DNA of 64,000 nucleotides from a virus (IMGVR_UViG_2747842453_000002:56763-120762), one strand, 5' to 3'; numbered from the stretch's first letter, positions 11,372 to 45,480 are shown. The notes: generated by a model not told the origin, from the sequence alone. Numbers and translations are program-made.

Positions 11372-12328
11372 CTATAAGTCCTCGTTAATAAATGTATCAC
11401 GCTTCATCTGTTTACATACTTGCATACAACGAGGCACAGGATTATCACTATCCCAACTATTAACTATACCTTGCCATACATCGCTACTTATAGCATCTTC
11501 AACACTTACATTATTCAAGTTAATTGAATTTTTATAATCAGTATCTCTAAGTAATGTCTCATAACTATCTTTGGTATTACCACTTACGCCATACTCCAAT
11601 GTCTTTGCATTTAGATGACAACAAGGAATAACATCACCTGTATGGTTTATAAAAATTCGTTTTTGATTTCCATACTTACAACTTACATAAGGAATTTCTT
11701 GTGCAGTATCAATCTTCTCTGTATTTGCTGCTTTTATATTTCCAGTAGTGTCTTTACGATGACTAATAATAGTTTTGAAGTTTTTAAACCCCTCATTCGT
11801 GGCTTTGCTTTTGGCTTCCTCCAACTGATGTTCGTTATGTTCGAACACGATAAACTGCCATACACTTTTGCCACCTGCTGCATTGAAAGCTCGATAGTTT
11901 TGTTCGACTTTTTTGAAATTACTACCCTGACGATATACTTCACTTAGTTCATCACTGCCGTCAATTCCCCAAGTAACATTATGGCTACTTGGTAAAATAC
12001 TTGCTAACTCAGTCCACCAGTTAGTAGTTCGCAAACTACCGTTCGTTGCAATATTGATGTGTGTATTCCAATCAGCAAAATGGCGTATAATATCAAAGAA
12101 CTGTGGATGACTTGTTGGTTCGTCTATACTGCCACAAAAGTTTACAATTTTAATACTAGGAAATAATTCTTTTTTAAATTTTTCACGTATAGTTTCTATT
12201 GTAAGATATTCTTTATTGATAAGATCATCAGCGTGTTTAGATATAACTCGCAAACAACCTTTGCACTCAATATTACAAAAACTAGTAAGTTCTATATCTA
12301 ACCATTCTATTGTATCCATATTCCACAT
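11372..12328 (-). CDS. radical SAM protein with C-terminal SPASM/twitch-like domain (subfamily A)
   Basis: CNIECKGC, TNGS, GIDG, WQFIVFEHNEHQ, C-terminal PCC...CMQVC. Confidence 0.9.
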   Translation of the reverse strand: MWNMDTIEWLDIELTSFCNIECKGCLRVISKHADDLINKEYLTIETIREKFKKELFPSIKIVNFCGSIDEPTSHPQFFDIIRHFADWNTHINIATNGSLRTTNWWTELASILPSSHNVTWGIDGSDELSEVYRQGSNFKKVEQNYRAFNAAGGKSVWQFIVFEHNEHQLEEAKSKATNEGFKNFKTIISHRKDTTGNIKAANTEKIDTAQEIPYVSCKYGNQKRIFINHTGDVIPCCHLNAKTLEYGVSGNTKDSYETLLRDTDYKNSINLNNVSVEDAISSDVWQGIVNSWDSDNPVPRCMQVCKQMKRDTFINEDL

Positions 12329-12393
12329 ATTATTATTCTCCTCGCATTGAATTATTTTTTAGATGGTAACTCAATGTCACGTAATTATCAGTT

Positions 12394-13650
12394 TTATACC
12401 TCATGCCAATATTTCCTGAATTCTGGATAAACATCTAATATATTAGTTTCGTGGTGTTGATCTTGTGCATTAGCATATTCAATAAAGTCATCCCAATAAT
12501 GATACCAATCCTCACCATTCATATAATTAATTACGTTATCTCCAAATTTCTTCCATCTCTCAAATGATCTGTTTACAAATTTTTGTGAGTGATTATAAGA
12601 TTGCATCCATTCTCTATCTCCATTAATCAATTCATCCCAATCATTTGTTACTTTCTCTTTTAATGCCGGTGGTAACAATTTAGGATTTAATGGACGAGGA
12701 AACTGAACAATACTTGTGTGATAATCAACTCCCATTGAATAGTAATACTTGGCGATTTCAGTTGCTCTCGTAATATTTAATAAATTGGCTGTCATTGTTG
12801 CACTTAGTTGAATGTTGCTTAACTGTAGTGCTTTTTTTATATTATCTTCTGCTATTGATAAATTGCCTCGAACTCTAACGTATTCATATATTTCAGGATA
12901 GGCATCCAAACTAACTCGTATACTAACACGCTTAAAATGCTTCCACAAATCTAGTATACTTTTTCCCTTATATTCTAGTGTACTAAAATTACTATTATAT
13001 TGTAATGTAATATGGTTTGCTTCAGGTAAAATACGCTCTAAAAAATCATAATGCTTATCATGGAACAAAGGTTCCCCGCCTGTAATCATCAATTCAGTAA
13101 GGTTCGGACTAAGTGAAACCACTTCATCAATTATCTCTTGTGTTAGACTAACATGCTTTTCAAGTTCCCTGTATGTTCCAACTTTTTTCATTTGTCCCAT
13201 TAATATCGGATCTCGTTTCGCCTTCTGTTCCCATATGCTACTATATGTAGGAGAACAATGTCTACACATCAAATTACAGATATTATCAAAACGTATTTCA
13301 ATACTTTGTAAATTTTTAATTGGGTAACTACCATCTTCTTCGATATTGTTAATAATATTATTACTATCAACATCAGGATACATTTCAGCCGCATTTTGAC
13401 GTAAACTTTTCGCACCGCTACGTTCTAAATCCCAACAACTTATACAACCTTTATGTTGAACTCCATTTACCAATTCGGTTCGCACTTTACGTAACTGTTC
13501 GCCATTCCAAGTATCTGTAAGTGTATCTGTTAGAAAATCTCCAACCTTATCTGGATATCTCCAACACGCACTCAACTTACCTTCATTTTTAATGTTAATA
13601 TGATGGAAAGGCATTATGCAAAATGTATCACTCTTATTCTTATCTTCCAT
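12394..13650 (-). CDS. radical SAM protein with N-terminal twitch/SPASM-like domain (subfamily B)
   Basis: FCIMPF...ACW...CISC, then CNLMCRHC, TGGEP, SLDA. Confidence 0.9.
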   Translation of the reverse strand: MEDKNKSDTFCIMPFHHINIKNEGKLSACWRYPDKVGDFLTDTLTDTWNGEQLRKVRTELVNGVQHKGCISCWDLERSGAKSLRQNAAEMYPDVDSNNIINNIEEDGSYPIKNLQSIEIRFDNICNLMCRHCSPTYSSIWEQKAKRDPILMGQMKKVGTYRELEKHVSLTQEIIDEVVSLSPNLTELMITGGEPLFHDKHYDFLERILPEANHITLQYNSNFSTLEYKGKSILDLWKHFKRVSIRVSLDAYPEIYEYVRVRGNLSIAEDNIKKALQLSNIQLSATMTANLLNITRATEIAKYYYSMGVDYHTSIVQFPRPLNPKLLPPALKEKVTNDWDELINGDREWMQSYNHSQKFVNRSFERWKKFGDNVINYMNGEDWYHYWDDFIEYANAQDQHHETNILDVYPEFRKYWHEV

Positions 13651-15060
13651 TTATATATCCTTAAATATGTCTTTCATCTCTGTAAAGGTAGAACTAAAAC
13701 TATTGTTACGCTGCCTATCACATAGACTTAAATATTCTTTTAACTCTGGAAGTCTAATGCTCCAGTCTTCACTTTCCATAAATTGTACCATACCTTGAAG
13801 ACGCTTTATTCCGTATTCTGCGTCGATAAAATTTTCTTGTGTTACATTGTCCTTATGCCAACTTGGGATACCTAGTTCCCAATTCGCTTCCCACCATGGA
13901 TAAAACTCTTCATACTTTTTACGTACTTCTGCTTTAAACCAGTCTGGTAATACTTTAACATTAAGATGTGCTGGGTGATAAACAAAGTGATAATTAATTC
14001 CGCCAGCGCCGAATGGCCACATATTAATTTTACTAAAACCTTGTTCCAGTTTCCATTTAATGAAATCTGGAATATAATATATGTTCAAAGCCTGCACTGC
14101 ACATGCAACAGTTACTTCTACATTGTCACTCGTTTGCTTGTCTAATATATGAAATACTTCTTTCTGTCTGCTCCATTCACTAGGATAGCGAATGTAATCA
14201 TTCATATCTTCAATACTATCAACACTATAATGAAAGCGTACTAATTTAAATTCTTTCCATAGATCAAATAAATCATCTCTCCACTCTACACCATTTGAGT
14301 TATAGCGTAGTTCAAGGTCCTTTGCGTAACCCATTTTGATAGCGTGTTCAAGTATTTCGTAGTGTTCTTCAATAATAAGACTTTCGCCACCTGCAAAATA
14401 TATCTGTTGCATACTAGGCATCTGATCGTAAAACTGTTCCCAAAATTTTGGATTCTGCTTATGCCAATTATAACTACTTCTATTAGTACTACCTTTGTCA
14501 GCCCATTGCATTGTCTCCTTTAGAGATTCGTTTTTTACCTCTGGAAAAATCTTTTTATAATCTTTAATCCAGCCACTACTATCGTGTGGACTACACATTA
14601 CACATGCTAATTGACACTTAGTACCAAATCTTAAATCAATATATGCTAACTGTGGAGGAACGCCGCCGTCAGCAGATGTGTTTTCAATAAGTTCATCAAC
14701 ATTGACACGTTGGCTCCAATAATTTGTTTCCCACATACGTTTACTATTATGTCCGGATGCCTCTTCCTTGTAACACTTCATGCAACTAGGTGGCTTTTCA
14801 CCATTAAGCATTTGTAGCCGTACATTCTTCATGTAATTAGAATTCCACGCAGTTTCAAAGTCACTAACATTTAGATTGTTTGGTTTACCATCATCTGTTT
14901 TAAGAATTCCTACTTGTCCGCCATGAACTTTGTCATTAGTTGGTCCAACTGAACTCGCATTTGCAGTACAACATACTCGCATACTGCCATCGGGACGGGT
15001 GCTAAGATGTACCCATGGCAACAGACAAAAAGTCTCGCTTGGATATTTTTTTTCAGACAT
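13651..15060 (-). CDS. radical SAM protein with N-terminal twitch/SPASM-like domain (subfamily B)
   Basis: FCLLPW...VCC...CMKC, then CQLACVMC, AGGE, YIRYP. Confidence 0.9.
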   Translation of the reverse strand: MSEKKYPSETFCLLPWVHLSTRPDGSMRVCCTANASSVGPTNDKVHGGQVGILKTDDGKPNNLNVSDFETAWNSNYMKNVRLQMLNGEKPPSCMKCYKEEASGHNSKRMWETNYWSQRVNVDELIENTSADGGVPPQLAYIDLRFGTKCQLACVMCSPHDSSGWIKDYKKIFPEVKNESLKETMQWADKGSTNRSSYNWHKQNPKFWEQFYDQMPSMQQIYFAGGESLIIEEHYEILEHAIKMGYAKDLELRYNSNGVEWRDDLFDLWKEFKLVRFHYSVDSIEDMNDYIRYPSEWSRQKEVFHILDKQTSDNVEVTVACAVQALNIYYIPDFIKWKLEQGFSKINMWPFGAGGINYHFVYHPAHLNVKVLPDWFKAEVRKKYEEFYPWWEANWELGIPSWHKDNVTQENFIDAEYGIKRLQGMVQFMESEDWSIRLPELKEYLSLCDRQRNNSFSSTFTEMKDIFKDI

Positions 15061-15086: not shown

Positions 15087-15115
15087 ATTATACTAATATT
15101 TTAAGTGATTGTCAA
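15087..15115 (-). promoter_or_regulatory. consensus sigma70 promoter for the 15060-11372 radical SAM genes
   Basis: Minus strand TTGACA-N17-TATAAT. Confidence 0.8.
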
Positions 15116-15199: not shown

Positions 15200-15880
15200 T
15201 TATACATGCCAGTTTACATACTCGTCCTGTGGCGGTTTTGGTTCGACTGCCCACTTATTACCCTGTTCCTTAGATTCTGCTGGTACCATTTGTTGTGTGT
15301 GAAGATTATAGGTTTCGTCAACGTTTGTGCTGGCGACACCTACACCAACCACTAACTGTACTTCATCGGGATAGTCTAAACCAAGTGCAGGTAAAATAGT
15401 AGTATCCCATCCACTGTATTCAAAATCCAAACAACGACAAAATCCACACTGTAACCCTCTGGCTGCGGCACTGTAAATTAGCATATGACTTGCTAATCCT
15501 ATTTCCATTGCACTCAAACTCAGATATAGTAAATCTTGATTTCTTTCACTATAGTCATATGTCAGAGGTGAAGGAATTCTTCCAGTGAATACAACGAGCC
15601 AATTAGCCAGTGTTTGTGAGTTATAATGTTTTGTTTCAGGATTATGTCTATCCACTGCCATTTCATAAAATTCATTGCGCAACGCAGTATCGCTCCAATC
15701 AAGTATATGCATTCCAAAGTGTACTTGGTTCTGTTTACACGGCGTCCTGCGATGAATTTCGTCCACTATTTCTTGCATTGTTTCCTGTGTAACTGACGCA
15801 TCTAAATTCCAATTACTTGTTTGCATTCTTAGATCAGTTAACTCTTGCCATGCTTGTAATTTTGTATTTGTTTCACTCAT
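15200..15880 (-). CDS. nitroreductase-like flavoprotein (likely start 15880)
   Basis: R..S.W, TPCKQN, and MEIGLASHMLIYSAAARGLQCGFC resemble the nitroreductase fold. Confidence 0.6.
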   Translation of the reverse strand: MSETNTKLQAWQELTDLRMQTSNWNLDASVTQETMQEIVDEIHRRTPCKQNQVHFGMHILDWSDTALRNEFYEMAVDRHNPETKHYNSQTLANWLVVFTGRIPSPLTYDYSERNQDLLYLSLSAMEIGLASHMLIYSAAARGLQCGFCRCLDFEYSGWDTTILPALGLDYPDEVQLVVGVGVASTNVDETYNLHTQQMVPAESKEQGNKWAVEPKPPQDEYVNWHV

Positions 15881-16967
15881 TTTTACTCTCCATAATATGT
15901 TCATCTATCTTAAATTTTGCAATTGGTTTTGTTTCTTGAACTTTCTTACTACACGTACTTGCACATTTAACCATCTTACTTCCGCAACTTGTACCATATT
16001 CTGAATCGAAACTTCCTACTAAATCTTTTTTATAAAATGGATGATTTAATATTTCATCAACACTATGTAAATCTAATCGATTCCAATCAGGTGAACTATA
16101 TTCACTATACATGGTTTTACTTACCTGATGCCAATGTGTGTTGTGACCACCGAATTCAGTATTTCTAATAAAACAGCAAGGCCACAGGCGTGCATTGAAA
16201 TCAATAAAATACATTTTTTGTCTTTGAAAGAAACAGTCAATTGGATCGTTTTCAACACTTTTCTTTGATATAAAAAACTTATCAAGATCATCTGGGCTTG
16301 AATTATTATATTGTTTATCTTCAGCCTGAATTCGCCGTATGTCTTCTATTTCCCAATTATTCTCGGATATCATACTACGGTCTAACCTATGTATGAAATG
16401 CTTAAATCCCATCTGCTTACTTTTCTCACTTGCTTCTTCAACTTGATGTTTATTCCATGGGAATACCAAATACTGCCAGCCAGCATCTCCACCTGCCTGA
16501 ATGAAAGATTCTGCATTTTGCATAATTCGATCAAAATTAGTTCTCTGTCTATATATATGATTGGTATCTTGTAAACCATCTATACTAAATTTCAATTGGT
16601 GCCTGTCAAACTGTTGTAGTATCTCAGCAGTTTCAGCCCAATAACTGGGATTTCTAGTACTACCATTAGTATGTATCCAAACTTTTTTTATTCCACATTT
16701 TAATGCTAACCTAAGAATATCATTAAATTGGGGATGCATGAAAGGATCATCAACTGTTCCGCAAAAGTCCAAATCTGTAACTGTCTCAAACTCATTTAAG
16801 AATTTTTCAATCACATCTAGTTGTAGAATCTTTTTATCTGGAATAGTTGGCATCTTACCATTAAAATTTAGATGATTAGTACGTGCACAGCCGAAGCACA
16901 GTGCATTGCACATACTACTAATCTCTAGTTGTAATCGTGTAGGCTCCGGTAGATACATCTGCGTCAA
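15873..16967 (-). CDS. radical SAM protein with C-terminal SPASM/twitch-like domain (subfamily A)
   Basis: CNALCFGC, HTNGS, FSIDGL, WQYLVFPWNKHQ, WPCC...CASTC. Confidence 0.9.
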   Translation of the reverse strand: MTQMYLPEPTRLQLEISSMCNALCFGCARTNHLNFNGKMPTIPDKKILQLDVIEKFLNEFETVTDLDFCGTVDDPFMHPQFNDILRLALKCGIKKVWIHTNGSTRNPSYWAETAEILQQFDRHQLKFSIDGLQDTNHIYRQRTNFDRIMQNAESFIQAGGDAGWQYLVFPWNKHQVEEASEKSKQMGFKHFIHRLDRSMISENNWEIEDIRRIQAEDKQYNNSSPDDLDKFFISKKSVENDPIDCFFQRQKMYFIDFNARLWPCCFIRNTEFGGHNTHWHQVSKTMYSEYSSPDWNRLDLHSVDEILNHPFYKKDLVGSFDSEYGTSCGSKMVKCASTCSKKVQETKPIAKFKIDEHIMESKNE

Positions 16968-17949
16968 TGTACTTATCTCCTTTTTTTATATTTTTAATCT
17001 TAGTTGTTTGTAAATCAGTCAAACATCCACATAAGTCCCACTTACATTTTACTGGCAGTAATGGAATACTGTATTCTTTATCACTTATATTACCATATTT
17101 TAAGTTCTTAAAACACTGGCTGCCAGGTTTGATCCACCCATTATGTTGAACTACTAGTGTTTCAATCCCCATATTACAATACCAATCTTTCCAATCATTT
17201 AGTTGTGGTAATAGTATTTCATTTTCTATACTTTTAACTATTACTGGTTCTTCTCCGTCTTTTCTCCACTGCATTTTGCTTTGATTTTTTAGATTTGGGG
17301 ATCCGTTTAATCTCTGCAGAGAATTCATTGTTGCTAATTGTATATCTGTATAAGGTTGTAATTCATGCTTCCGTATTGATATTCTGACAGGCTTATATTG
17401 TAAACTAACACCAGGTATTAAATTATCATACAAATATTTATATGTGTCAACACACCCATCAAATTGCGCAATATCCATCATAACATGCAACGATATATTT
17501 ATACCTGATTTTTGGACTTGATTAAATTTTTCAACAATCTTTTCTTTTTTGGTTTGTCCCTCATGTATACTTACAATAAGTAAATCGAATAGATGCGCTT
17601 TATCTGTCCACCATTTTGTACTACGTGTGCCGTTAGTTAATAATCGGATTATATTATTTTCATTTATATTTTTAATATATTCACAAACTTTCGTCACCTC
17701 AGGCCATAGTGCAGGTTCACCGCCATGAAAATTAAAAAACATTATTTTGTTTTGAGGGACACATATGTTTTCCCATACAAAATCAATGAACCTAATGCAA
17801 TTATCAAAATCATGCCAGGGAACTCCGCCGTCCCAACATGCTGGATCACAGTAAGAGCATTGGAAATTACAAGTGTTTCCTGCTGCCCAATCAATAATTA
17901 TTGCATTTTCTTTTACAGGTTCAAAATAATCATATTCATATTTTGTCAT
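16918..17949 (-). CDS. radical SAM protein with C-terminal Cys-rich domain (subfamily C)
   Basis: CNFQCSYC, HGGEP, TNGTR, WKDWYCNMG...CKWDLCGC. Confidence 0.9.
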   Translation of the reverse strand: MTKYEYDYFEPVKENAIIIDWAAGNTCNFQCSYCDPACWDGGVPWHDFDNCIRFIDFVWENICVPQNKIMFFNFHGGEPALWPEVTKVCEYIKNINENNIIRLLTNGTRSTKWWTDKAHLFDLLIVSIHEGQTKKEKIVEKFNQVQKSGINISLHVMMDIAQFDGCVDTYKYLYDNLIPGVSLQYKPVRISIRKHELQPYTDIQLATMNSLQRLNGSPNLKNQSKMQWRKDGEEPVIVKSIENEILLPQLNDWKDWYCNMGIETLVVQHNGWIKPGSQCFKNLKYGNISDKEYSIPLLPVKCKWDLCGCLTDLQTTKIKNIKKGDKYIDADVSTGAYTITTRD

Positions 17950-19040
17950 CGAAATTGCTCCTTGAACGGATCAAACTCAGTTCCGCATTTCATTGCGCAT
18001 ACTCCCAGTTTACCATCACTTATGCTAGTTTTATCCCAACTATCGGTAATACTAGTTAAGAGATTACCAGACATTGCATCTTCTATGCTAATTTCAATAA
18101 CATTAATTCCGTCTTTTCCGCCAGCAGCATCTATATGATCCCATATCTGTTCTACACGATAATCTTTATGCCACCACTTATACATACGACCCGCAGTCCA
18201 ACAGCATGGCATCAATAGGCCTTCTGCTGTTATAAAGATTTCATTCTTTTCAACTGCCTTACACGATATATTACATTTGTCATAATATTCACGCATACTA
18301 CCATATGATTTTTCTATTTCTTTTTGCTTTAATAGAGCAATATTTTGGTTGTCAGTACTTTTAGGTTTAGCGATTACCGCAGTCTTTTCTCCATTGCGGT
18401 TTTGTGCCTGGTGTGTATCTTTAGACGTTTCTCCACTTGCAACTATAAATCTCCCAGATTTTTTCTTTTGAAACTTTTCACATCCCCATTCAATTGCAAG
18501 TGTTTCTGCTTCTGCAACCTGATGTTCATTGTGTTGGAATATCAGGAAGTCCCATCTTGCTCTACCACCAGCAGAGATGAATGCTTTCATATTACGTTCT
18601 ACATTATCCCAAACAACATTTTGTCTGTAAAGATGATTTGTATCACGAAGACCATCAACACTAAAGATTACTGCACCTTTATTATTGATAACTCCAGCCA
18701 ATTCTTCCCACCATTCTGTATTCTTTGCACCAGCATTTGTGTTCATACTTAGCCACATTGTTGGATTATGTTCTCTAAAGTATTTAAATACTTCTAATGT
18801 ATCTTTAGCAACAATAGGATCACCAAGATTACCACACATATACATCGCATCTAATTGTCCAATAAACTCTGGAGAGAATATCTTTTTACAATCGTCTATT
18901 GATAGTTCTGCATTTGTAATATGTCTATTATCAACACCGCCATTTTCATTTCGGTCACACATAGGACACGCTGCTTGACAACGTTGCGTTATTTCTAAAT
19001 GAACTTGTTTTATGTTATCGTATCTATACAAGTCTACCAA
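17946..19040 (-). CDS. radical SAM protein with C-terminal SPASM/twitch-like domain (subfamily A)
   Basis: CQAACPMC, CGNLGDP, FSVDGL, WDFLIFQHNEHQ, MPCC...CAMKC. Confidence 0.9.
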   Translation of the reverse strand: MVDLYRYDNIKQVHLEITQRCQAACPMCDRNENGGVDNRHITNAELSIDDCKKIFSPEFIGQLDAMYMCGNLGDPIVAKDTLEVFKYFREHNPTMWLSMNTNAGAKNTEWWEELAGVINNKGAVIFSVDGLRDTNHLYRQNVVWDNVERNMKAFISAGGRARWDFLIFQHNEHQVAEAETLAIEWGCEKFQKKKSGRFIVASGETSKDTHQAQNRNGEKTAVIAKPKSTDNQNIALLKQKEIEKSYGSMREYYDKCNISCKAVEKNEIFITAEGLLMPCCWTAGRMYKWWHKDYRVEQIWDHIDAAGGKDGINVIEISIEDAMSGNLLTSITDSWDKTSISDGKLGVCAMKCGTEFDPFKEQFR

Positions 19041-28926: not shown

Positions 28927-28961
28927 CTTTTTTTCTCCTATAATTTTTAGATGATCGTTTT

Positions 28962-32401: not shown

Positions 32402-32417
32402 TGTGTTCTTTCTTTTC

Positions 32418-36771: not shown

Positions 36772-38419
36772 CTTTTTTCCTCATTTCCTTAGCAGTACAA
36801 AACTGAACCATTTTATATATATCTTCCAAACTTTCTTTCCAATTTTCTTTTCTTATTTCATCTAATTTCTTTCCTGAAGCGAAAAATGTTTTCCATTGTG
36901 ATGGGTCATCTTCTACTGAATTCATATGTGTTAATACTGCTTCAAGACGGGTCTCTGTAAGACTTAACCATGCGTTATCATCCGGCCATTTCTTTCTAAT
37001 ATCAACATAAAATTTACGATAACGATTTGTGATATATGATTTCATTGATTTAGGAATATTTTGAGTGTTTAAATAATCTGGTCCATATAAGTTATGAACA
37101 ATGATATTACTATCGATGGTATTCCAGTTTTGTTCACGCATCCACCATTGCATATCTAACAAATGTAACACATTCATAATACTGACTGTCATTGTTACGC
37201 TTGCTTTAAGATTTGTAAATTCATTATTGTCAATACGTTTCATATTCTTATAAGCAGTATTCCATTTTCCAGGATATCTGATATACTCAAAATGTTCATA
37301 TATACCATCAATGCTCATTCCCAAATTAACTTCCTTAAATTTCTTCCACTGTTTAAATATAGCACCTGGTACACCAGCCATATTAGTATTGTAGTCTAAA
37401 ATTAAATCTTTGGCATATCCATTATCTATCGTATACTGCAGTAACTCTCTATGTGTATGATTTATAGTAGGTTCTCCGCCAGTAAAATAAAATCTTTTTA
37501 TATTTGAAATTTCATTTTTTATATTTGAAACTAAGTCAGTTTTGTCAAACCATTCAAATGGAGAATCTTTAACAATTGCAGAACCGTTTTCATCTGTTTC
37601 AATAGTAACATCTCCTATTCCACGATTAAAAAATGTATTCTTACCTGTAAACTTCTCCCAATCTTTATACCATAAATTACTATCTGTTGGTCCACAACTA
37701 CGGCATGCTAAGTTACACTTATTACCAAATCTTAGATCCCAATGTTCAATAGGAAAATCTTCATGATTTATAGAACCATCTTCTGCAGTATTCAAAATTG
37801 CATTATCAAAAGTTTGATTAAATGCTTGATTGGTCCAAGTTCGTCTACTACCGATACCATTATCTTCCTCATCCCAACATAACTTGCATATCTCCGAACG
37901 TTGCCCACTAAGCATTTCTTTTCTTAACTTTTTCCATGCTGTGGAATTTCTATGTTCCGATATGTTATCAGTTGTCGTAAGCGCAGTGCCGTCATCTTTA
38001 AAGACAGTGCCATATGCCTCTTCACCATCAAAGCCTTGATTATTAATCATCTGACAACACATTCTGACTGTGCCATTTGCATTTGTACTAACATGATTCC
38101 ATGGCACTGCACAGAATGACTTTCTTCTTCCATCATCTTTCTTCGCAATCATCACTGATCGCATAGCATGTAGTTCATCTACAGTGTAATCAAATTTAAC
38201 CGATATAGATTTAATCAATTTGTCATCTATATGTGTGGCAATTAATGTTCCTAAAACAACTGACTTATCTAAATCATGTTCAACAACGCTCTCTAACACA
38301 TCCTTGGGACACTCTGGATCTTGAACCATATCAATTCTCTGTTCAGATGTTCTAAATACTGACAAGTCAAATTTATTATCAGTATCAATTTCCTCATATT
38401 TTAATCCATCATCATTCAT
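36740..38419 (-). CDS. radical SAM protein with N-terminal extension and twitch/SPASM-like domain (subfamily B)
   Basis: FCAVPW...MCC...CKLC, CNLACRSC, TGGEP, SIDG, YIRYP. Confidence 0.9.
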   Translation of the reverse strand: MNDDGLKYEEIDTDNKFDLSVFRTSEQRIDMVQDPECPKDVLESVVEHDLDKSVVLGTLIATHIDDKLIKSISVKFDYTVDELHAMRSVMIAKKDDGRRKSFCAVPWNHVSTNANGTVRMCCQMINNQGFDGEEAYGTVFKDDGTALTTTDNISEHRNSTAWKKLRKEMLSGQRSEICKLCWDEEDNGIGSRRTWTNQAFNQTFDNAILNTAEDGSINHEDFPIEHWDLRFGNKCNLACRSCGPTDSNLWYKDWEKFTGKNTFFNRGIGDVTIETDENGSAIVKDSPFEWFDKTDLVSNIKNEISNIKRFYFTGGEPTINHTHRELLQYTIDNGYAKDLILDYNTNMAGVPGAIFKQWKKFKEVNLGMSIDGIYEHFEYIRYPGKWNTAYKNMKRIDNNEFTNLKASVTMTVSIMNVLHLLDMQWWMREQNWNTIDSNIIVHNLYGPDYLNTQNIPKSMKSYITNRYRKFYVDIRKKWPDDNAWLSLTETRLEAVLTHMNSVEDDPSQWKTFFASGKKLDEIRKENWKESLEDIYKMVQFCTAKEMRKKDVKLATTGKR

Positions 38420-39305
38420 TTGGCTGTCCTAATTTATTATTATTTTCTATCCAACGATTCGTTATGCCAATCGCTTTATCAGTGTCCAATTTTGGTACTA
38501 TTTTTTTTATTTTTTGCCAGAATATGGTAGAATCTTTATCTAAGTTATCAGAATCAACAACATGTAAATTCTTAAAAGTTCTTACATACTTTGGTAAAAA
38601 AGTTATGTATGTATTTATTAAAGATTCTTTATGGTCTTCTTTAAGGACATTTATGTCACTGGTGTGCTTCAATCGTATGTTTTTATTTTTAACAATCGAT
38701 GAGTGATGTGTGTCATATGAAACAGGATTTTTATAATTATTAGATTCTAACAAATCATTTAATAGTGCATAAAGTTCATGTCTCCAAACCCAATCAAATT
38801 TTTTTGTTTCATCTATCATAAATTGTTGTTGTTTTTCTGACAGTGTAGTAGAAATTGTTGAGTTTATAAAATCAACAGTAATAGGACAATCTACTTTTAC
38901 CGCTAACTTTTTTATCGCTAGATCGGCAAAATAGTCTATTGAATCTTTTTTAGGAAATGCTAAGTCAATATAAATTATCGTAATATCTGGTAAATATCTT
39001 TTATAAAATTCTATAGAATTATTGCTTGGATGGTCTTTTACAATAATTCGTTTTTTAATAGAAACGAAATCACCCTTGTATCTTGTTTCAATACCATTCT
39101 CAAATTTAGTTATATCTTCTACTAAATCCATATATCGTAACGCACATATTGAATGATATTGATTCACATTTTTATTTACCCACGTGTATATGTCTTCAAA
39201 TTGATCACAGCATGTACTAAGTGTATGAGCAATGTGTTCGCCACCAAGACCAGCAGGATACACTATCAGTATTGGATGCGCATTAATAAAATCATTATGA
39301 TTCAT
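38412..39305 (-). CDS. hypothetical protein, possibly P-loop/sulfotransferase-like
   Basis: IVYPAGLGGEHIA near N-terminus, KDHP. Confidence 0.5.
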   Translation of the reverse strand: MNHNDFINAHPILIVYPAGLGGEHIAHTLSTCCDQFEDIYTWVNKNVNQYHSICALRYMDLVEDITKFENGIETRYKGDFVSIKKRIIVKDHPSNNSIEFYKRYLPDITIIYIDLAFPKKDSIDYFADLAIKKLAVKVDCPITVDFINSTISTTLSEKQQQFMIDETKKFDWVWRHELYALLNDLLESNNYKNPVSYDTHHSSIVKNKNIRLKHTSDINVLKEDHKESLINTYITFLPKYVRTFKNLHVVDSDNLDKDSTIFWQKIKKIVPKLDTDKAIGITNRWIENNNKLGQPNE

Positions 39306-40699
39306 TATTGTTCCTTGAAAAATTCTATTTCATTATCACTGTAATTTACAAGAGATTCTGCATCATTGATGTCACGAATAGGCACTAAACTAAGTGAGCC
39401 TTTCATTCTTCCATTTGCTCCAGTTGTATTCCATTCTGGAATTTCTGTAATTCTATCTTTGAGTTGTTGTGCACGATCAAGAAATCCTGGTGGGGTCATT
39501 AGTTTTATTTCTAACCATAAGTCATCATCTATAATATCATGGTGTTTCATTATTATTTTACAGTTATCTAAAAATCTATCTTCATTACCGCGATACAAAT
39601 CCATACTTGCAAAATGTGCACTCATATTAACACTATTTATGTATTGTGTTGCTTCACTCCAGAATTTTGTACTTCGACTACCATTTGTAGTTACCAATAT
39701 CCATTGATTTCGGGACTTTAAATATTTTAAAATGTCAATGAATTGTGGATGCATGGTAGGTTCACCTCCACCAAAATTCCATCTGATTTGTTCGCCATTA
39801 CTCCAATTATCTATAATCATATCGATAGTATTAATAACAGATTCAAACGATGGAAACTTTTCAGTATTACTATGAACTGCCGGCCAACAATAGTCACATG
39901 CATAATTACACCGTCTTCCAATGTCCCACAAGATTTGATATGGAATAGGAAAGTTCATTTCTACTCCAACACTTTCATCTATATTATCAGTGATATAATT
40001 CTTACCGCCACGTTTAGTGCCAGCATATTGATTATGTGTCACGTCCAGTAACTTCATATGTTCTACGGTTTTTGCTTTACTTAAAATTACATCTGCGCCG
40101 CAGCCACAACTCTTAAAAGGACAAACTGTATAATTTTCAGGTATGTCAATACCTTCACGAATATTGCCTAATAATCCCCAATTTTTTGGTATGTCATCTA
40201 ATGTACTTTCCCATTTCCATGCACTTGCAGTTGTATCAATATTATCTGTTTGAATGTTCTTTCCTAAATTCTTAAAAAAAGTTTCTTCTGCTTCTTTCAA
40301 CGCATCTTGTAGTTTAATATGTTGTTCGCATGTTTCCCAGCCGTTCTTAGGCAACGGCCAGCCACCTATAGTATTTTCATTATACCATTCAATATGCGGA
40401 TAAGAACCGAATATTCTTTCACGTTCAACCCTCCAGCCTTCTACAGTTGTATCATGATGTGCAGTACTATTTCTATGACTACTGGCACAGTTACCATTCC
40501 ATATATTACCATCGTAATCTATATAAAGTCCACGCACTCCTGCACTACACTGCCATCCCTTCCATTTGTTATGTTCTCTTGCAATAGCCTCATCCACACT
40601 CATTCTAATAAACTTGCCATTCGTATCATACACACGTAGTTGTTTATTATCTAATGGGATCCGAGGATCTGATTTAATAGGCATCTTCCAAAACCTCAT
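39305..40699 (-). CDS. radical SAM protein with permuted domain order (subfamily C)
   Basis: N-terminal WKGWQCSAG...CPFKSCGC, then CNYACDYC, GGGEP, TTNGSR. Confidence 0.9.
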   Translation of the reverse strand: MRFWKMPIKSDPRIPLDNKQLRVYDTNGKFIRMSVDEAIAREHNKWKGWQCSAGVRGLYIDYDGNIWNGNCASSHRNSTAHHDTTVEGWRVERERIFGSYPHIEWYNENTIGGWPLPKNGWETCEQHIKLQDALKEAEETFFKNLGKNIQTDNIDTTASAWKWESTLDDIPKNWGLLGNIREGIDIPENYTVCPFKSCGCGADVILSKAKTVEHMKLLDVTHNQYAGTKRGGKNYITDNIDESVGVEMNFPIPYQILWDIGRRCNYACDYCWPAVHSNTEKFPSFESVINTIDMIIDNWSNGEQIRWNFGGGEPTMHPQFIDILKYLKSRNQWILVTTNGSRSTKFWSEATQYINSVNMSAHFASMDLYRGNEDRFLDNCKIIMKHHDIIDDDLWLEIKLMTPPGFLDRAQQLKDRITEIPEWNTTGANGRMKGSLSLVPIRDINDAESLVNYSDNEIEFFKEQ

Positions 40700-41681
40700 A
40701 TCTATTTTTAGGAAGTACTTTTTTACTCATAATGTCAAAGTTACAATGACACATACTTTTTGTACACATTACAGGTTTAGTAGGCCATTTAATAGATTCA
40801 GGATATTTCATATTTCCAAGTATTCCGCCAACTCTACACCATCCTATCATAACACTGCCATCGAAATCTACAACAATTTGTTCAACACCACTCCAACACA
40901 ACCAACCTTTCCAGTTATTTGTCTTATCGTTAATAAAACGATGAGCACTACTATTTTGTTTCATGTTATTGACATCATCATGCATATCCATACTACCACG
41001 ATAAATTTTCCATTTCTTATCATGCTGTATTTTATTACCTAATCCCCACCATTGATTGTCAATATATTCAATCTGTTCTGGAGTATAATCATATAATGTT
41101 TCACCAAAATCAATGATTAGTGGCTGTAATGCAAGTGATATATTTGGAATGTCTATTACACTTTCAGCCACCTTTTGACATCTTGGCCATATCTCTGGGT
41201 CGTAATGCATCATAACATTTACATGTGTTCTACATTGTTGACTCATTATTTTTACAACTTCGATGAAATGCTCTGCATCGCCTTCTTCTGGATGATATGA
41301 AAGACATACATGGTCAAATTTTGTTTTATTCTTTTCCCACCAGCGAATCGTTCTACTACTATTGCTAATGAATCCTATATCATGACCAATTTCTTTGATG
41401 TACTCTGCACATTTAATAAAATCTTTCCAGAGTGTTACTTCTCCACCTGTAAATTCAAAATATACAGTTCTAGGATGATAATGAGCAATCGTAGAATCTA
41501 TGAATTTCTTTACAACATCAAAGTCATTCCATCCAAAACTGCCGTCATTTAGAATACTTGGACAATAGGAACATGTGAAATTGCACATATTTCCTAAATT
41601 CCAATTAACCACAACCCAGTCTTTGGCTTCATCGTGGTGATGATCAAGTCTATTATAAAATTCCTGCGGTCCGAGGGGCAT
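40674..41681 (-). CDS. radical SAM protein with C-terminal Cys-rich domain (subfamily C)
   Basis: CNFTCSYC, TGGE, WKGWLCWSG...CTKSMCHC. Confidence 0.9.
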   Translation of the reverse strand: MPLGPQEFYNRLDHHHDEAKDWVVVNWNLGNMCNFTCSYCPSILNDGSFGWNDFDVVKKFIDSTIAHYHPRTVYFEFTGGEVTLWKDFIKCAEYIKEIGHDIGFISNSSRTIRWWEKNKTKFDHVCLSYHPEEGDAEHFIEVVKIMSQQCRTHVNVMMHYDPEIWPRCQKVAESVIDIPNISLALQPLIIDFGETLYDYTPEQIEYIDNQWWGLGNKIQHDKKWKIYRGSMDMHDDVNNMKQNSSAHRFINDKTNNWKGWLCWSGVEQIVVDFDGSVMIGWCRVGGILGNMKYPESIKWPTKPVMCTKSMCHCNFDIMSKKVLPKNRYEVLEDAY

Positions 41682-41684
41682 GTA

Positions 41685-41867
41685 TTAATCCTTGTCTGTC
41701 TCAAGTTCATCGAGTCTTGTTTCAAGTCGTTGGACGGATTGTAGTATTTCCCACAATTTCCAATCCATTGTTTTAGCAAGTTCTAAAATTTCATTATTGA
41801 AATCTGTTGAATTTCTTTCTGCTACAGTTGTATCATTTTCCGGTATTAGTCTAATTTTTTTAACCAT
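41685..41867 (-). CDS. small coiled-coil protein
   Basis: 60 aa, AAGGA RBS, MDWKLWEIL motif. Confidence 0.7.
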   Translation of the reverse strand: MVKKIRLIPENDTTVAERNSTDFNNEILELAKTMDWKLWEILQSVQRLETRLDELETDKD

Positions 41868-41878
41868 TGTAATTTCCT

Positions 41879-42820
41879 TTATTTGTCCCAGCCGGTTGAC
41901 TTTTCAGTTGCCAAAGGATTATGAACTCTCTTTGGATTATTATAAACACGTTTAAAGTAGCGTGATAGTTCTGGTGTAGGATCACACATCTCCATACCAA
42001 GATTTTCACATAGATAGTCTCCTAATGTTAATGTACGATCATACAGTAAATCTTCATTCTTTGATAACTCAGAATAAACAGTATCATAAAAAAACGTTTT
42101 AAACCAATCATAATTACTGATACTCTCAATGATAAAATCTGAATTGAAATTTACATCATAGCATCCCATCCTAGCACCTAATACTGCCCATAGACCATTT
42201 TCAACATCAGATCCAATATTGCACCATGTCAGTAGTCTTTCATAATTTTTAGGCCATATTCTTCTATTAAACTCACTTGGCGGTACTCTAGTGCCTTCAT
42301 CAAGCGACATTTTTACTCCTTCACGATATCCACTGCGAAACGCTTGAAATGGCGAGCCACTATTAAATATCATTGAATATGTATTATTCATTTGCTTATA
42401 GTCTAGATCCCAACAAAAGTCAAGTTTCTTGGTTTCATTATCTGCATTCTCATGTGTACGCATATCTAATACTAGTTGAACTGGCCAGCATTTAATTCCA
42501 CCATTGCCATAGACCAATCCATTAGTAAGATTTTTAGCTCCCCATGATATTACGCTACGACTCAAATCTGTGTTCTCAGGAAAAGATAATGTGATATCAA
42601 AAAACTTTTTATCTACAATATTATCACCATCTATCGTAATAAATCTATCAGTTTTACTAGCACGGGCACATGCCTTATGTGCATTATCAAATCCTTTAAC
42701 ACCATCAATTCTCTGTGCCATTGGAAATTTACTTAGTAGGTCTACATAGTGTTCTTCTTTGTTCGGTTCATCATAACTAAGGTAGAATATACTTAAATCT
42801 TTTATAATAAGCTTTGTCAT
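41879..42820 (-). CDS. glycosyltransferase-like protein (paralog of 20940..22049)
   Basis: LSYDEP, RIDGVKGFDNAHK, TIDGDN, YGNGGIK, FRSGYREG. Confidence 0.65.
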   Translation of the reverse strand: MTKLIIKDLSIFYLSYDEPNKEEHYVDLLSKFPMAQRIDGVKGFDNAHKACARASKTDRFITIDGDNIVDKKFFDITLSFPENTDLSRSVISWGAKNLTNGLVYGNGGIKCWPVQLVLDMRTHENADNETKKLDFCWDLDYKQMNNTYSMIFNSGSPFQAFRSGYREGVKMSLDEGTRVPPSEFNRRIWPKNYERLLTWCNIGSDVENGLWAVLGARMGCYDVNFNSDFIIESISNYDWFKTFFYDTVYSELSKNEDLLYDRTLTLGDYLCENLGMEMCDPTPELSRYFKRVYNNPKRVHNPLATEKSTGWDK

Positions 42821-42822
42821 CT

Positions 42823-43437
42823 TTATTCTCTTATATCCTCCATACTGTATGTAGTAAAAATGTAATTAGCATATATGCTTATGTTCTTATATTTATGTCT
42901 GTACTTAATTGTCTGTTTTTTACCCGTTAAAATTTTAGAGTAATCTAATTCAATTGTGTCAATTAATAATCCTGATTCATTTTTCATTGTTATATAAAAT
43001 TTATGTGATTTATTGTTTTTAATGATAATATCTTTATCATTATTTTGTTCAACAAAAAATTCTTCCAGGTTAGATGTTGCCAAGATATCGAATCCATCAT
43101 CTGTCACATAAATTTTTAAATCTGGTGATGAATGATAATCTATATGGCGAATATTATTACTAGCGTTATTTTTTACAATATACTTACCTGCATCTCTTCT
43201 AACAATTACGTAATGCATCTCATCTTTTTTAAAAACCACATTGTACCCATTGGTAACATAGGTACCATCAAGAAATCTCAACAAATCAGCAGCAGAAAAG
43301 TATGCGAAATTATTTTTATTATTTTTATCAACTCTATTTTCAAAGGAAAGAATTGTACCATCTGAATTAAAGTATACGACTTTAAATGGGTTGTCAGAAC
43401 TTAGAGTTTTTATACTACGGATCATATACATTCTCAT
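42823..43437 (-). CDS. hypothetical protein
   Basis: 204-aa ORF in operon. Confidence 0.7.
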   Translation of the reverse strand: MRMYMIRSIKTLSSDNPFKVVYFNSDGTILSFENRVDKNNKNNFAYFSAADLLRFLDGTYVTNGYNVVFKKDEMHYVIVRRDAGKYIVKNNASNNIRHIDYHSSPDLKIYVTDDGFDILATSNLEEFFVEQNNDKDIIIKNNKSHKFYITMKNESGLLIDTIELDYSKILTGKKQTIKYRHKYKNISIYANYIFTTYSMEDIRE

Positions 43438-44272
43438 ATTGTTTAATCATATCATTTGTCAACCAATCTTTTTCAACATAATGAAACGGCAATGTTTGAA
43501 TGAAGTTATGTATATTAATTTCCAAATCATCAGATACATTGCTTGTTAATGTATCTTGCCAATCAGAGAAAATATTTTTTTCAGGAATGTTTTGAATATA
43601 ACTTTTCATATGCACAAATGCAGGAAAAGGCAAACTAGATATAAATTTTTCTTTACCTAGTATTTTAGCAGCAAGTGCATATGCTACATCCGCACTTACC
43701 CAATCTTGGCCTTTGCCTTTCAAGAACTCATTATAGTATAATTCCCAGTTGTTTATAATCCTTTCAACTAATCGAAAGAATTCATAAGAAACTTCAGACT
43801 TATTAAAGTATGTAAAATTGCTATATACATCAGGTAACTCACAGTCTGTAAATTTCTTTCTATAAAAATCAGAGATTATTGGTTCATCTCTGAATGTTCT
43901 AGGGTTTGTACATAATAACACATCATACTTGCTATCACCTAGCATATCCCACCAATGGTCAATCGATTTTGTAAATAATTGATCTGTATCTAATATTATT
44001 GTTTCATCAAATGGAGACATGTTAATATACTTCCATTTGTTCTCTATTTTCCATGTGCTATTAAGTGCATCGTCATTCCATGGAATATCTACAATGTAAT
44101 CAAATACATCACAATACTTTTGTTCCAATCTGTCACTTGTTTTTTTATCAACACACAAGCAAATTGCATTTTCACGTTGCGTGGTCTTAATGCTCAGTGC
44201 AAGTGCGTATGCCATTCTTAGATAATCATGCTCATCTGTATTTTGGGCTATTACAATATATCCTCTACTCAT
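43415..44272 (-). CDS. GT-A glycosyltransferase-like protein (GT8-like)
   Basis: GYIVIAQN, LALSIK, SPFDETIILDTD (DxD), FVHMK, PFHY. Confidence 0.7.
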   Translation of the reverse strand: MSRGYIVIAQNTDEHDYLRMAYALALSIKTTQRENAICLCVDKKTSDRLEQKYCDVFDYIVDIPWNDDALNSTWKIENKWKYINMSPFDETIILDTDQLFTKSIDHWWDMLGDSKYDVLLCTNPRTFRDEPIISDFYRKKFTDCELPDVYSNFTYFNKSEVSYEFFRLVERIINNWELYYNEFLKGKGQDWVSADVAYALAAKILGKEKFISSLPFPAFVHMKSYIQNIPEKNIFSDWQDTLTSNVSDDLEINIHNFIQTLPFHYVEKDWLTNDMIKQYENVYDP

Positions 44273-45132
44273 AATGTAATTCCATTTTCAAAAAACGAAT
44301 CCAAATGTTTTGTAATGCTTCGTTTATTCATAATGTGAAGATCGGATCGTTGCAATCTTACTATATTTCTGACTGTGCGATTTTTAGCAGTTATCATAAC
44401 AATGTTATCAGGTCCATCGACTCTTAAAATTTGATCGGTATCAAAACTATTAACAAGTTTATTGAAGGGAAGATTTGGTACTATAGCATTTACTTCACCA
44501 TTCAGGATATGCAATGCAATACTGAATGTATGATCATTTCTATATAATGCCACATCACATTTATAAAGATTGTAATAATACCTATAGTTATTCTTAATAT
44601 GATTTATCATTTTGAATAAATTTGAAGAAAATTCACATTTTCTAAAGTATATTACAGTAGCCCAATACATATCTATGCTAATATCATTAAGTCTGGCAGT
44701 ATTTGAAGTTTTTGTTTGTGATATATCGGTAAAATCTTTGGTAATCATAAAATCATTGCGACTACCCCATACGCCATCTAACTGGTTTGTCATAATAAAA
44801 TAATCACAATCTATTACCAGTGTTTCATCATATGGAGATAGAGAGTAAACATCACCTCGACTTTTATTAATAAACGGTGCACCTTCTACGTTCTTAATAG
44901 TATCGCGGTATTTTCGCATGGTACTATCTGTACTTTTTGGTATAACAATAGTTCTATCAAAATAACAGTCAACCAATTTACGATTTTCATTTAATGATGA
45001 TTCGTCTGTTATAAGACATATTTCATCAAAGCCAGAAAGATACTTTCTGGCATATCCAGCACTTGCACACGATATTTTTACATAATCAACATAATCGTTG
45101 TTCTGTGCAAAAATTATTATACCTTTTGTCAT
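44269..45132 (-). CDS. GT-A glycosyltransferase-like protein (paralog of 43415..44272)
   Basis: GIIIFAQN, SPYDETLVIDCD (DxD), WATVIYF, RNDHTFSIA. Confidence 0.7.
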   Translation of the reverse strand: MTKGIIIFAQNNDYVDYVKISCASAGYARKYLSGFDEICLITDESSLNENRKLVDCYFDRTIVIPKSTDSTMRKYRDTIKNVEGAPFINKSRGDVYSLSPYDETLVIDCDYFIMTNQLDGVWGSRNDFMITKDFTDISQTKTSNTARLNDISIDMYWATVIYFRKCEFSSNLFKMINHIKNNYRYYYNLYKCDVALYRNDHTFSIALHILNGEVNAIVPNLPFNKLVNSFDTDQILRVDGPDNIVMITAKNRTVRNIVRLQRSDLHIMNKRSITKHLDSFFENGITL

Positions 45133-45480
45133 TTATAAATCTAATGCAATTTCAATTTTTGTGGAACTTCTAAGTTGTTCATATTCTTGATAGTAAAAGT
45201 TAAGGGAAGAAAAATATCGTTCTGATACTAGTTCTAAGAATTCATTTACATCAGCAATATTAATAGGTAAATTATTTTTGTCCAATATATTTACATTCAT
45301 TTTATCAGACTGAACTAAATAATTTAAAAATCCTATTAATTCTTGGGTCACAACAAATGTGCCACCATTTTGATAAACATGTAATTCGTTCATTACTTTA
45401 TCTTGCATAACTTTTCTATTTAAATTAAAATTACGCATTGTATTTTTGTACGACAAAATATTTTCTAAATTTTCTTCCAC
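45133..45480 (-). CDS. hypothetical protein
   Basis: 115 aa, GTG start with GGAG RBS, first gene after promoter. Confidence 0.7.
   Translation of the reverse strand: MEENLENILSYKNTMRNFNLNRKVMQDKVMNELHVYQNGGTFVVTQELIGFLNYLVQSDKMNVNILDKNNLPINIADVNEFLELVSERYFSSLNFYYQEYEQLRSSTKIEIALDL

Follow-up and report, generated by a model that had tools for sequence, protein, structure and literature searches.

Tail-adjacent enzyme islands in viruses

Gene islands in which glycosyltransferases and radical S-adenosylmethionine (SAM) enzymes are found together near phage tail genes have been described before. The host recognition cluster (HRC) of the pelagimyophages, T4-like phages with genomes of about 150 kb, is a hypervariable region of tens of kb that lies inside or next to the tail module of these marine myophages, includes the tail fibres, and carries GT8 glycosyltransferases as well as radical SAM cassettes that differ between close relatives (Zaragoza-Solas et al. 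2020; PMC7029224). Here we analyze a 64-kb stretch of viral DNA (IMGVR_UViG_2747842453_000002:56763-120762; the window), the final part of a 120,762-bp IMG/VR viral contig that is about 30% complete according to CheckV, and specifically an enzyme island at positions 11372-45480. The outline of this island is already known from the tail-adjacent radical SAM and GT8 cassettes of the pelagimyophages reported in 2020 (PMC7029224), with which it shares the location next to tail genes, the hypervariability and the combination of the two enzyme types. It differs from the HRC in belonging to a jumbo phage of the SCTP-2/PA5oct/RaK2 kind with a genome of about 350-400 kb, in being purely enzymatic, in possessing a conserved gene frame, and in the number of radical SAM genes (8-14 in this group of phages). 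Only one match, and a distant one, to the radical SAM genes of pelagiphages was found.

We class the locus as a phage tail-adjacent glycan-modification island built around an uncharacterised radical SAM family. It is real and widespread in related ocean jumbo phages, and we consider it probable that it encodes a cassette-built set of soluble enzymes that tailor a sugar by radical chemistry, the substrate being a nucleotide-sugar or a glycan under construction. This reading is favoured because of the transferases present in the gene frame, the decorating enzymes that surround them, the lack of a peptide-recognition domain or conserved precursor gene, and the nucleotide-sugar setting of the cellular homologues. 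The frame-and-insert anatomy, a conserved promoter, and a quantified link to the Bdellovibrionota are added here to the outline already available.

Several other systems resemble parts of the island. Soluble viral GT-A transferases encoded beside structural genes are likewise found in the chlorovirus PBCV-1, whose A64R protein is among the structural matches of the island protein o30, and in mycobacteriophages that glycosylate their capsids and tails. To our knowledge, these virion glycosylation systems operate without radical SAM enzymes; furthermore, the promoter of the island studied here looks early rather than late. Twitch-domain radical SAM enzymes such as BtrN work on sugars and aminocyclitols within aminoglycoside pathways, and related enzymes tailor aminoglycosides or oligosaccharides. 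They combine the radical SAM core with one auxiliary Fe-S cluster and act on sugar-type substrates; their likeness to the island enzymes is a functional analogy. PDB searches gave no significant sequence match to them, and their auxiliary domain is located at the other terminus. Among deposited phage records, o02 is matched most closely by genes of the Vibrio phages K566 and K567 (OZ196521, OZ196593) and of the Ralstonia phage RsoM2USA. In K566, a gene resembling the N_Twi family introduced below (22.6% identity over 98% of o02) stands in a row with two further annotated radical SAM genes. The cassettes of these phages comprise 3-4 very divergent radical SAM genes and lack the frame genes, and that of K566 is not situated behind tail genes. 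K566 and K567, whose deposited records name a mixture of seawater and oyster as the source, carry a small and distant version of the island and could be used as a phage model.

The radical SAM enzymes

A preliminary description of the window had counted eleven radical SAM genes, and this number is exactly borne out: the CxxxCxxC motif occurs once in each of eleven open reading frames (ORFs) and in no other ORF of the island, and all eleven match the Pfam family PF04055 (E-values from 6e-16 to 3e-5). These proteins are radical SAM enzymes as judged by Pfam, with their catalysis being predicted, and their genes make up 42% of the island DNA. Eight surpass the gathering cut-off of PF04055 (29.5 bits); o06 (29.0 bits), o25 (29.1 bits) and o26 (24.8 bits) fall just under it and are backed by SPASM matches, strong scores for NCBIfam NF033640 (N_Twi_rSAM), which o25 and o26 pass with ease, or paralogy. 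The canonical GGE(P/S) motif is present in six of the eleven proteins (o02, o03, o06, o25, o26, o28). A predicted auxiliary Fe-S domain is located at the N-terminus of five enzymes and at the C-terminus of five others, while the remaining one is B12-dependent.

Four of the enzymes are members of NF033640, whose curated cut-off is 170 bits; o02 (323.6 bits), o03 (417.5 bits), o25 (317.1 bits) and o26 (348.5 bits) match this model end to end. They share an N-terminal twitch domain with 4-5 Cys residues, recognized by Pfam SPASM at residues 11-97, that precedes the CxxxCxxC and GGE motifs of the core, and C12, C30, C93 and C96 are invariant in the N_Twi alignment. With scores of 29-52 bits, the remaining radical SAM proteins are non-members (o29 was outside the NCBIfam scan). 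NF033640 is a sequence catalogue entry only, and membership in it is silent on chemistry; a search of the literature found neither a characterised member nor a substrate, and nothing specific on radical SAM enzymes in connection with either jumbo phages or Bdellovibrio. Identification of the substrate of this family would bring new radical chemistry to light, probably with carbohydrates.

The other seven enzymes are more heterogeneous. One group (o01, o05, o07) carries C-terminal Cys clusters, while o06 and o29 possess a C-terminal Cys-rich module that in o28 is shifted to the N-terminus. The model for prokaryotic viperins (NF038283; cut-off 180 bits) is not reached by o28 (54 bits) or o06 (38 bits). 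In o24, a B12-binding domain (PF02310, 38.8 bits, residues 146-225) lies N-terminal to the radical SAM core (PF04055, 59.5 bits, residues 279-439), and its best NCBIfam matches are to PhpK-type and RiPP (a peptide made by the ribosome and modified after translation) C-methyltransferases, all far under their cut-offs. A candidate stand-alone partner domain that resembles 24% of o28 and occurs in nearly all loci was rejected, since it represents the N-terminal core of another radical SAM gene.

Enzymes of the SPASM/twitch type are best known for the maturation of peptides, which weighs against a sugar substrate and leads to a different view of the island: the radical SAM enzymes might install cross-links, epimerisations or C-methylations on a polypeptide, either a peptide made by the ribosome or a protein of the phage or host, which the glycosyltransferases would subsequently glycosylate, as is the case for glycocins. 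We consider this unlikely, even though the best structural match of o30 is the glycocin S-glycosyltransferase SunS and the island lies directly behind virion genes. In NCBIfam, the enzymes are only weakly similar to maturases of sactipeptides, ranthipeptides and cyclophanes and to RiPP C-methyltransferases, the best scores of 20-120 bits comparing with cut-offs of 250-850 bits. A PqqD or RiPP recognition element (RRE) domain was detected in none of the eleven proteins (Pfam, E ≤0.01), although divergent elements could escape Pfam, and no conserved precursor-like small ORF accompanies the frame or the radical SAM genes. The Gly/Tyr-rich tract of the flanking protein o35 was considered as a substrate for cross-linking and rejected, as the homologues of o35 lack a conserved tract. 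Moreover, eleven maturases for a single peptide would be unprecedented, and the cellular homologues of the island enzymes stand among nucleotide-sugar genes.

A conserved frame and variable cassettes

Thirty-four ORFs (o01-o34) were scanned in the island, 33 of which are on the minus strand; most junctions abut or overlap (1-53 nt), just as the near-complete co-orientation first reported for these genes would have it. Gaps between them hold two additional short ORFs of 37 and 60 aa, again on the minus strand. When o03, which is more conserved than any other island gene, was used to scan IMG/VR, at least 195 confirmed contigs were obtained, and in the best 80 of these the o03 protein is 81-100% identical. 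Within these best 80 loci, to which all synteny counts refer, o03 is accompanied by o07 in 79, by o08 in 74, by o10 in 70 and by o30 in 69. The recurrent gene order is o35-o34-o33-o32-o30-o10-o08-o07-[variable]-o03-[variable radical SAM genes]. Hence, a frame can be discerned that consists of o34, two GT8 and two GT2-like glycosyltransferase genes, the methyltransferase gene o08, and the radical SAM genes o07 and o03, with cassettes around it that vary. In the window, an insert of about 20 kb (o11 to o29) separates o30 from o10; it contains genes for a carbamoyltransferase, a T5orf172-type nuclease-like protein, a DUF6071 protein, a TctA transporter, methyltransferase-like proteins, and five further radical SAM enzymes. 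In each of five long relatives, 8-14 radical SAM genes are clustered within 15-30 kb, and in all five a homologue of the virion gene o36 is found upstream of the array.

Independent scattering of the genes in related phages had been named as an observation that would speak against a common system; their linkage is instead conserved in the 80 loci and the five long relatives. The view of a dedicated, uncharacterised island of co-oriented enzyme genes is thus supported. That the region is a misassembled host fragment is ruled out by the occurrence of o03 in at least 195 IMG/VR contigs and by relatives with a radical SAM array at the same place. The number of radical SAM genes, which had been called exceptional for a virus, is so in comparison with cultured phages, but 8-14 such genes are the norm within this widespread clade.

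Near-identical DNA is present in marine metagenomes from 11 studies. The contigs diverge from the window at or near cassette boundaries (e.g., at positions 15000, 17518 and 23734), a pattern that fits strain-level cassette variation. RNA libraries from two studies also hold contigs of the island; since their cover is flat and carry-over of DNA is possible, these metatranscriptome contigs do not demonstrate transcription of the island. None of 50,697 phage records was matched in a megablast search with 24.6 kb of island sequence. With at least 195 viral contigs and 11 metagenome studies, the island is thus a common, unexplained investment of ocean jumbo phages. We propose that swappable radical SAM cassettes might diversify the product between phage strains, by analogy with O-antigen loci. 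With its frame-plus-cassette design beside tail genes, the island may have to do with surface recognition or exclusion, which would bear on the host range of these phages and on competition among them.

Glycosyltransferases and putative decorating enzymes

The four glycosyltransferase-like genes of the preliminary description are substantiated by profile and fold. Pfam gave no match to the single sequences of the paralogues o32 and o33; their family profile matches glycogenin-1 in the PDB (E 4e-6, positions 13-104), with D95xD97 being invariant, and an atlas lead for this family was Mannosyl_trans3. For o30, the AlphaFold model (predicted local distance difference test score 88) retrieves with Foldseek the glycosyltransferase SunS as the best match and, among other matches, hyaluronan synthase, WrtF, RmlT and PBCV-1 A64R, at probabilities of 0.9-0.99 and modest TM-scores (0.25-0.32). 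The GT-A fold predicted for o30 is carried over from this model to its paralogue o10, which matches Pfam GT2 at only 19.9 bits, under the cut-off; D64xD66 is invariant in the alignment of the o10/o30 family. Profile searches of the PDB with the o08 and o10/o30 families gave no match, and the folds were therefore taken from AlphaFold and Foldseek.

Four methyltransferase-like genes had also been reported, and they are retained with differing weight. The model of o08 (AlphaFold score 93) matches methyltransferases at a Foldseek probability of 1.0, while a member-by-member Pfam scan of its family returned only noise; o09 is a paralogue of o08. The mutually similar o20 and o22 are weaker candidates, with a match to Methyltransf_23 for o20 only (E 3e-4). 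The carbamoyltransferase assignment is clear, as both domains of o11 exceed their cut-offs (Carbam_trans_C 181.4 bits, Carbam_trans_N 148.4 bits). NodU/CmcH-type carbamoyltransferases O-carbamoylate sugars, and enzymes of the same type tailor antibiotics.

Other enzyme assignments of the preliminary description are less certain. The proposed SGNH hydrolase (o14) matches DUF6071 (33.5 bits) and has a GDSL-like N-terminal motif. The nitroreductase (o04) is weak and stays under the cut-off of PF00881; homologues of o04 occur in 12 phage loci and in one Bdellovibrionales island. An invariant HxD...H...R pattern in the o17 family agrees with the suggested Fe(II)/2-oxoglutarate (2OG) oxygenase, but a family profile match is lacking, and the match to AtsK in the PDB is only at E~0.85. 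The sulfotransferase-like proteins o16, o21 and o27 share with such enzymes only a Gly-rich N-terminal motif; neither these three nor o17 matched anything in Pfam, PHROGs or the PDB at useful E-values. PHROGs profiles applied to 20 ORFs without assignment returned nothing useful, and a lenient Pfam search (E up to 5) of ten such ORFs returned nothing. Two genes were missing from the initial list: o19, which encodes a TctA transporter (298 bits), and o13, which encodes a MUG113/T5orf172 nuclease-like protein. The latter (90 aa; positions 23998-24270 on the minus strand) is GIY-YIG-related, stands at the edge of the carbamoyltransferase cassette, and may mark how cassettes move.

The TctA protein is the sole polytopic membrane protein of the island; o12 and o18 have one hydrophobic segment each, and the enzymes, among which none of these three is counted, all lack membrane segments. 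Because o18 has a signal-peptide-like N-terminus and a faint match to a TctC structure (PDB 6hke; E 0.39), o18 and o19 may form a two-part tricarboxylate-type uptake system within the variable insert. This pair would have a place in a pathway for a small molecule, namely a glycosylated or aminoglycoside-like metabolite that diffuses, or a cofactor, with the host or competitors as its target and an imported carboxylate as its precursor. The precedents of BtrN-type twitch enzymes in aminoglycoside pathways and of antibiotic-tailoring carbamoyltransferases are in keeping with such a product, as is the enrichment of NF033640 in predatory Bdellovibrionota (31 of 151 genomes, as compared with about 1% elsewhere). 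Nevertheless, we regard it as quite improbable, because the transporter belongs to the variable insert and the loci of the examined relatives lack it, the frame is dominated by glycosyltransferases, and neither a scaffold-forming enzyme (polyketide synthase, non-ribosomal peptide synthetase, cyclase, inosose synthase) nor an exporter was detected among the island ORFs.

Cellular counterparts in the Bdellovibrionota

When the N_Twi alignment was scanned against 185,579 species genomes, orthologues of o03 with 55-60% identity were found on large chromosomal contigs of Bdellovibrionales (including contigs of 804 kb, 200 kb and 161 kb) and, at 59% identity, in the isolate Bdellovibrio sp. HCB2-146. 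Bdellovibrionales chromosomes also carry the core o10-o08-o03-o07, with identities of 38-60%, together with further radical SAM genes, the o07-like genes adjoining the o03-like ones; the HCB2-146 orthologue of o07 is 43% identical. In the 37-kb array of HCB2-146, the radical SAM genes are interleaved with genes for two UDP-glucose/GDP-mannose dehydrogenases, two NAD-dependent epimerase/dehydratases, a GT2 glycosyltransferase and a Glyco_transf_7C protein. The 29 ORFs other than radical SAM genes that were pooled from two Bdellovibrionales islands also include a DegT sugar aminotransferase and a PMT_2 glycosyltransferase. The core in HCB2-146 provides a culturable bacterial system in which the pathway can be approached.

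NF033640 scores above its cut-off in 31 of 151 Bdellovibrionota genomes, in 3 of 301 from Pseudomonadota, 3 of 201 from Bacteroidota and 1 of 201 from Patescibacteria, and in none of 14 control genomes; these counts include the genome on which each sample was centred, and in the Bdellovibrionota sample at most 11 candidates were scored per genome. A single Bdellovibrionota metagenome-assembled genome (MAG; G001) holds more than 20 matches above the cut-off. The sole Dojkabacteria genome with NF033640 is the only one of 201 in its phylum, and contamination or transfer is possible in this case. In a quick tree, the phage o03 proteins form a monophyletic clade, with the Bdellovibrionota orthologues outside of it. 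The three best "bacterial" matches to o03 (73-83% identity), all on short MAG contigs, fall inside the phage clade and are therefore most simply explained as phage contigs mis-binned into bacterial MAGs; they are L081, L082 and L083, from MAGs labelled Arcticimaribacter, Crocinitomicaceae and Neisseriaceae, in which o03/o07 are 64-83% identical to those of the window.

Promoters and timing of expression

A sigma-70-type promoter (Table 1) is present in the 93-nt gap between the last virion gene and o34, the first gene of the island. In six of six relatives (L019, L020, L041, L048, L057, L078), such a promoter is found 20-30 nt before the o34 homologue, with the sequence TTGAC(A/T)-17-TATAAT or, as seen by eye in L057, TTGACG-17-TATACT. 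A TTCGAAT(A/C) box directly precedes the -35 element in L041, L048, L078 and L057; the o34 promoter of the window is without this box. Sigma-70-like sites also precede o10 and o03. The T4-type late box TATAAATA is not enriched (6 sites versus 16.8 expected), and the island strand has only two, both inside o06. From the conserved promoter and the scarcity of late boxes we infer that the island is probably read early, by unmodified host polymerase, from its own sigma-70-type promoter.

This timing bears on the proposal that the product decorates the virion, which is one possibility only: with an early-like promoter that is conserved and not a late box, remodelling of the host fits at least equally well. 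As to the wider suggestion of a glycan or a post-translational modification, a sugar substrate is the best supported part, while the virion is one candidate target among others.

Early expression would also suit a modification of nucleic acids, in which soluble glycosyltransferases, methyltransferases, the carbamoyltransferase and the radical SAM enzymes would decorate the bases of phage DNA, or tRNA, as a protection from restriction. The glucosylation of T4 DNA and the hypermodification of thymidine are known precedents for such a defence against host restriction. Apart from the transporter pair and o12, the proteins are soluble; o06, o28 and o29 have viperin/MoaA/QueE-like cores of the nucleotide-handling kind, although with weak scores; and a thymidylate synthase gene adjoins the island in the window phage. 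Its product, however, scores as a canonical ThyA (351 bits), and the adjacency is not kept, as thyA is found in only one of the five long relatives and there at a distance of 55 kb from the island. A DNA-base hydroxymethylase, kinase or deazaguanine pathway gene was not seen in the island, and the more than 20 copies of NF033640 in one Bdellovibrionota MAG, among sugar genes, are hard to reconcile with a modification of DNA. We therefore hold a role in nucleic-acid hypermodification to be very unlikely.

Proposed function of the island

Under the favoured reading of radical sugar tailoring, the four GT-A-type transferases (two GT8-like and two GT2-like) would build or attach a short glycan from nucleotide-sugars of the host. 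This glycan would be decorated by the SAM methyltransferases, the carbamoyltransferase, the esterase-like protein and the likely Fe(II)/2OG oxygenase, and the eleven radical SAM enzymes would contribute reactions beyond the reach of ordinary enzymes, in which abstraction of hydrogen from C-H bonds leads to epimerisation, oxidation, dehydration, C-methylation or C-C bond formation. The fixed frame would make a common core and the cassettes would vary the product. Since the enzymes are predicted to be soluble and no Pfam family of an initiating transferase, flippase/ABC exporter or polymerase was detected in any ORF of the island, the chemistry would be cytoplasmic, with nucleotide-sugars, a glycan bound to lipid or protein, or a protein as its substrate. 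The acceptor may be a protein of the virion tail or fibres or the envelope of the host, or the product may be soluble; the position behind the virion genes suggests the tail or fibres, while the host envelope is suggested by the early-type promoter and by the published interpretation of the pelagimyophage island.

A number of observations weigh against radical sugar tailoring. Neither a nucleotidyltransferase nor a sugar aminotransferase was found in the contig or in four long relatives, and an epimerase was not found in this contig and is held by only some relatives; host nucleotide-sugars would therefore be needed as input. With no flippase, polymerase or initiating transferase seen, a classical route to a surface polysaccharide is not evident. 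No NF033640 member has a known substrate, and the nearest solved structures to this family, both distant, are GDGT-MAS, a lipid enzyme, and SkfB, a peptide enzyme. Finally, the argument from the cellular context is a transfer by homology at 38-60% identity, and the sugar genes present there may serve a neighbouring pathway.

More tentatively, and with considerable doubt on our part, N_Twi_rSAM-centred islands might constitute a distinct, unnamed class of glycan-editing systems, in which arrays of permuted twitch enzymes act, independently of oxygen, on the C-H bonds of a sugar chain that has already been assembled. The exchange of cassettes between aquatic jumbo phages and predatory Bdellovibrionota would diversify the product, and both of these attackers of Gram-negative cells would thereby alter or mask the surface that contacts their prey, or that of the infected cell. 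If true, radical SAM chemistry would be extended by new reactions on carbohydrates, and phage-host surface variation would gain a new axis.

Source phage, flanking genes and minor features

Related contigs of 102-182 kb are rated by CheckV as 28-51% complete, so that the full genome probably amounts to about 350-400 kb. The G+C content is even across the window (0.29-0.38). A search of the contig for gp23 (PF07068) gave no match, and the control genomes were equally silent. As for the host, the best identities of the TctA protein were at most 36% in Pseudomonadota, and one of 151 Bdellovibrionota genomes matched; no host can be named on this basis.

As initially described, the island directly follows structural genes: o35, o36, the gene for a 3114-aa protein and a baseplate wedge gene are all homologous to genes for virion proteins of PA5oct, SCTP-2 or RaK2. 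The o36 and o35 proteins are homologous to PA5oct gp357 and gp360, respectively, both of which are marked in the PA5oct record as detected in the virion by electrospray ionization tandem mass spectrometry (ESI-MS/MS), and their counterparts form the end of the baseplate and tail-fibre operon of that phage; the enzyme island therefore starts at o34. In the 3114-aa virion protein, a segment of about 450 residues (about 1800-2250) consists of 25% Ser+Thr and is nearly without Lys/Arg, which makes it a conceivable target of glycosylation.

Table 1. Coordinates of the island genes, flanking genes and signals, counted from the first nucleotide of the window
Feature	Position	Strand	Description
thyA			Canonical thymidylate synthase (351 bits); convergent to o01, at the island end
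Hairpin, 10-bp stem	11301-11323	-	Terminator-like; closes the island, between o01 and convergent thyA
o01	11372-12328	-	Radical SAM (Radical_SAM 37.7 bits) with C-terminal SPASM-like Cys cluster (SPASM 24.3 bits); CxxxCxxC at residue 18; last gene of the island
o02	12394-13650	-	N_Twi_rSAM; four Cys ahead of CxxxCxxC
o03	13651-15060	-	N_Twi_rSAM; most conserved gene of the island, frame gene
Promoter of o03	15087-15115	-	Perfect sigma-70 consensus TTGACA-17-TATAAT; only in the three closest relatives
o04	15200-15904	-	Weak nitroreductase-superfamily match, flavoenzyme-like (PF00881, E 0.005, 17.5 bits, under cut-off)
o05, o06, o07	15873-19040	-	Three radical SAM genes; o07 frame gene, 59-99% identity in relatives
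o08, o09	19079-20956	-	Class I SAM methyltransferases with N-terminal helical-repeat domain; o08 frame gene, o09 its paralogue
o10	20940-22049	-	GT-A (GT2-like) glycosyltransferase, paralogue of o30, frame gene
o11	22085-23617	-	Carbamoyltransferase, NodU/CmcH type; first gene of the variable insert
37-aa ORF	23614-23727	-	Basic; ends RKRDPFIYK; 4-nt overlap with the start codon of o11
o13, o14	23998-25001	-	o13 MUG113/T5orf172 nuclease-like; o14 DUF6071 with GDSL/SGNH-like N-terminal motif (33.5 bits)
o16, o17	26505-27805	-	o16 P-loop/sulfotransferase-like motif only; o17 candidate Fe(II)/2OG oxygenase
o18, o19	27862-30455	-	o18 354 aa, signal-peptide-like N-terminus; o19 TctA membrane transporter (297.7 bits)
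o20, o21, o22, o23	30573-33509	-	o20/o22 methyltransferase-like, mutually similar, DIGCG motif in both; o21, o23 without match
o24	33506-35548	-	B12-binding radical SAM, class B methylase-like
o25, o26	35527-38419	-	N_Twi_rSAM paralogues
o27	38412-39305	-	Soluble protein, no significant match
o28, o29	39305-41681	-	Radical SAM with Cys-rich module; viperin/MoaA-like cores, far under family cut-offs
60-aa ORF	41684-41866	-	Begins MVKKIRLIPENDTT; occupies the sole long gap of the island, between o30 and o29
o30	41879-42820	-	GT-A (GT2-like) glycosyltransferase, frame gene
o31	42823-43437	-	No significant match
o32, o33	43415-45132	-	GT8 glycogenin-like glycosyltransferase paralogues, frame genes
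o34	45133-45480	-	115 aa; first gene of the island; homologues at the same position in 8 relatives
Promoter of o34	45520-45548	-	Sigma-70-type, TTGACA-17-TATAGT
o35, o36	45574-47332	-	Flanking virion genes that anchor the island, outside the enzyme set
3114-aa ORF	47389-56733	-	Virion protein; top matches in SCTP-2, PA5oct and the RaK2/CBB group
Baseplate wedge gene	56737-61131		Top matches in Salicola phage SCTP-2, Pseudomonas phage PA5oct and RaK2/CBB jumbo myophages

The gap between o18 and o17 contains a strong 11-bp palindromic hairpin with six G-C pairs (positions 27824-27848), possibly a site of internal termination or processing that parts the transporter pair from the next cassette.

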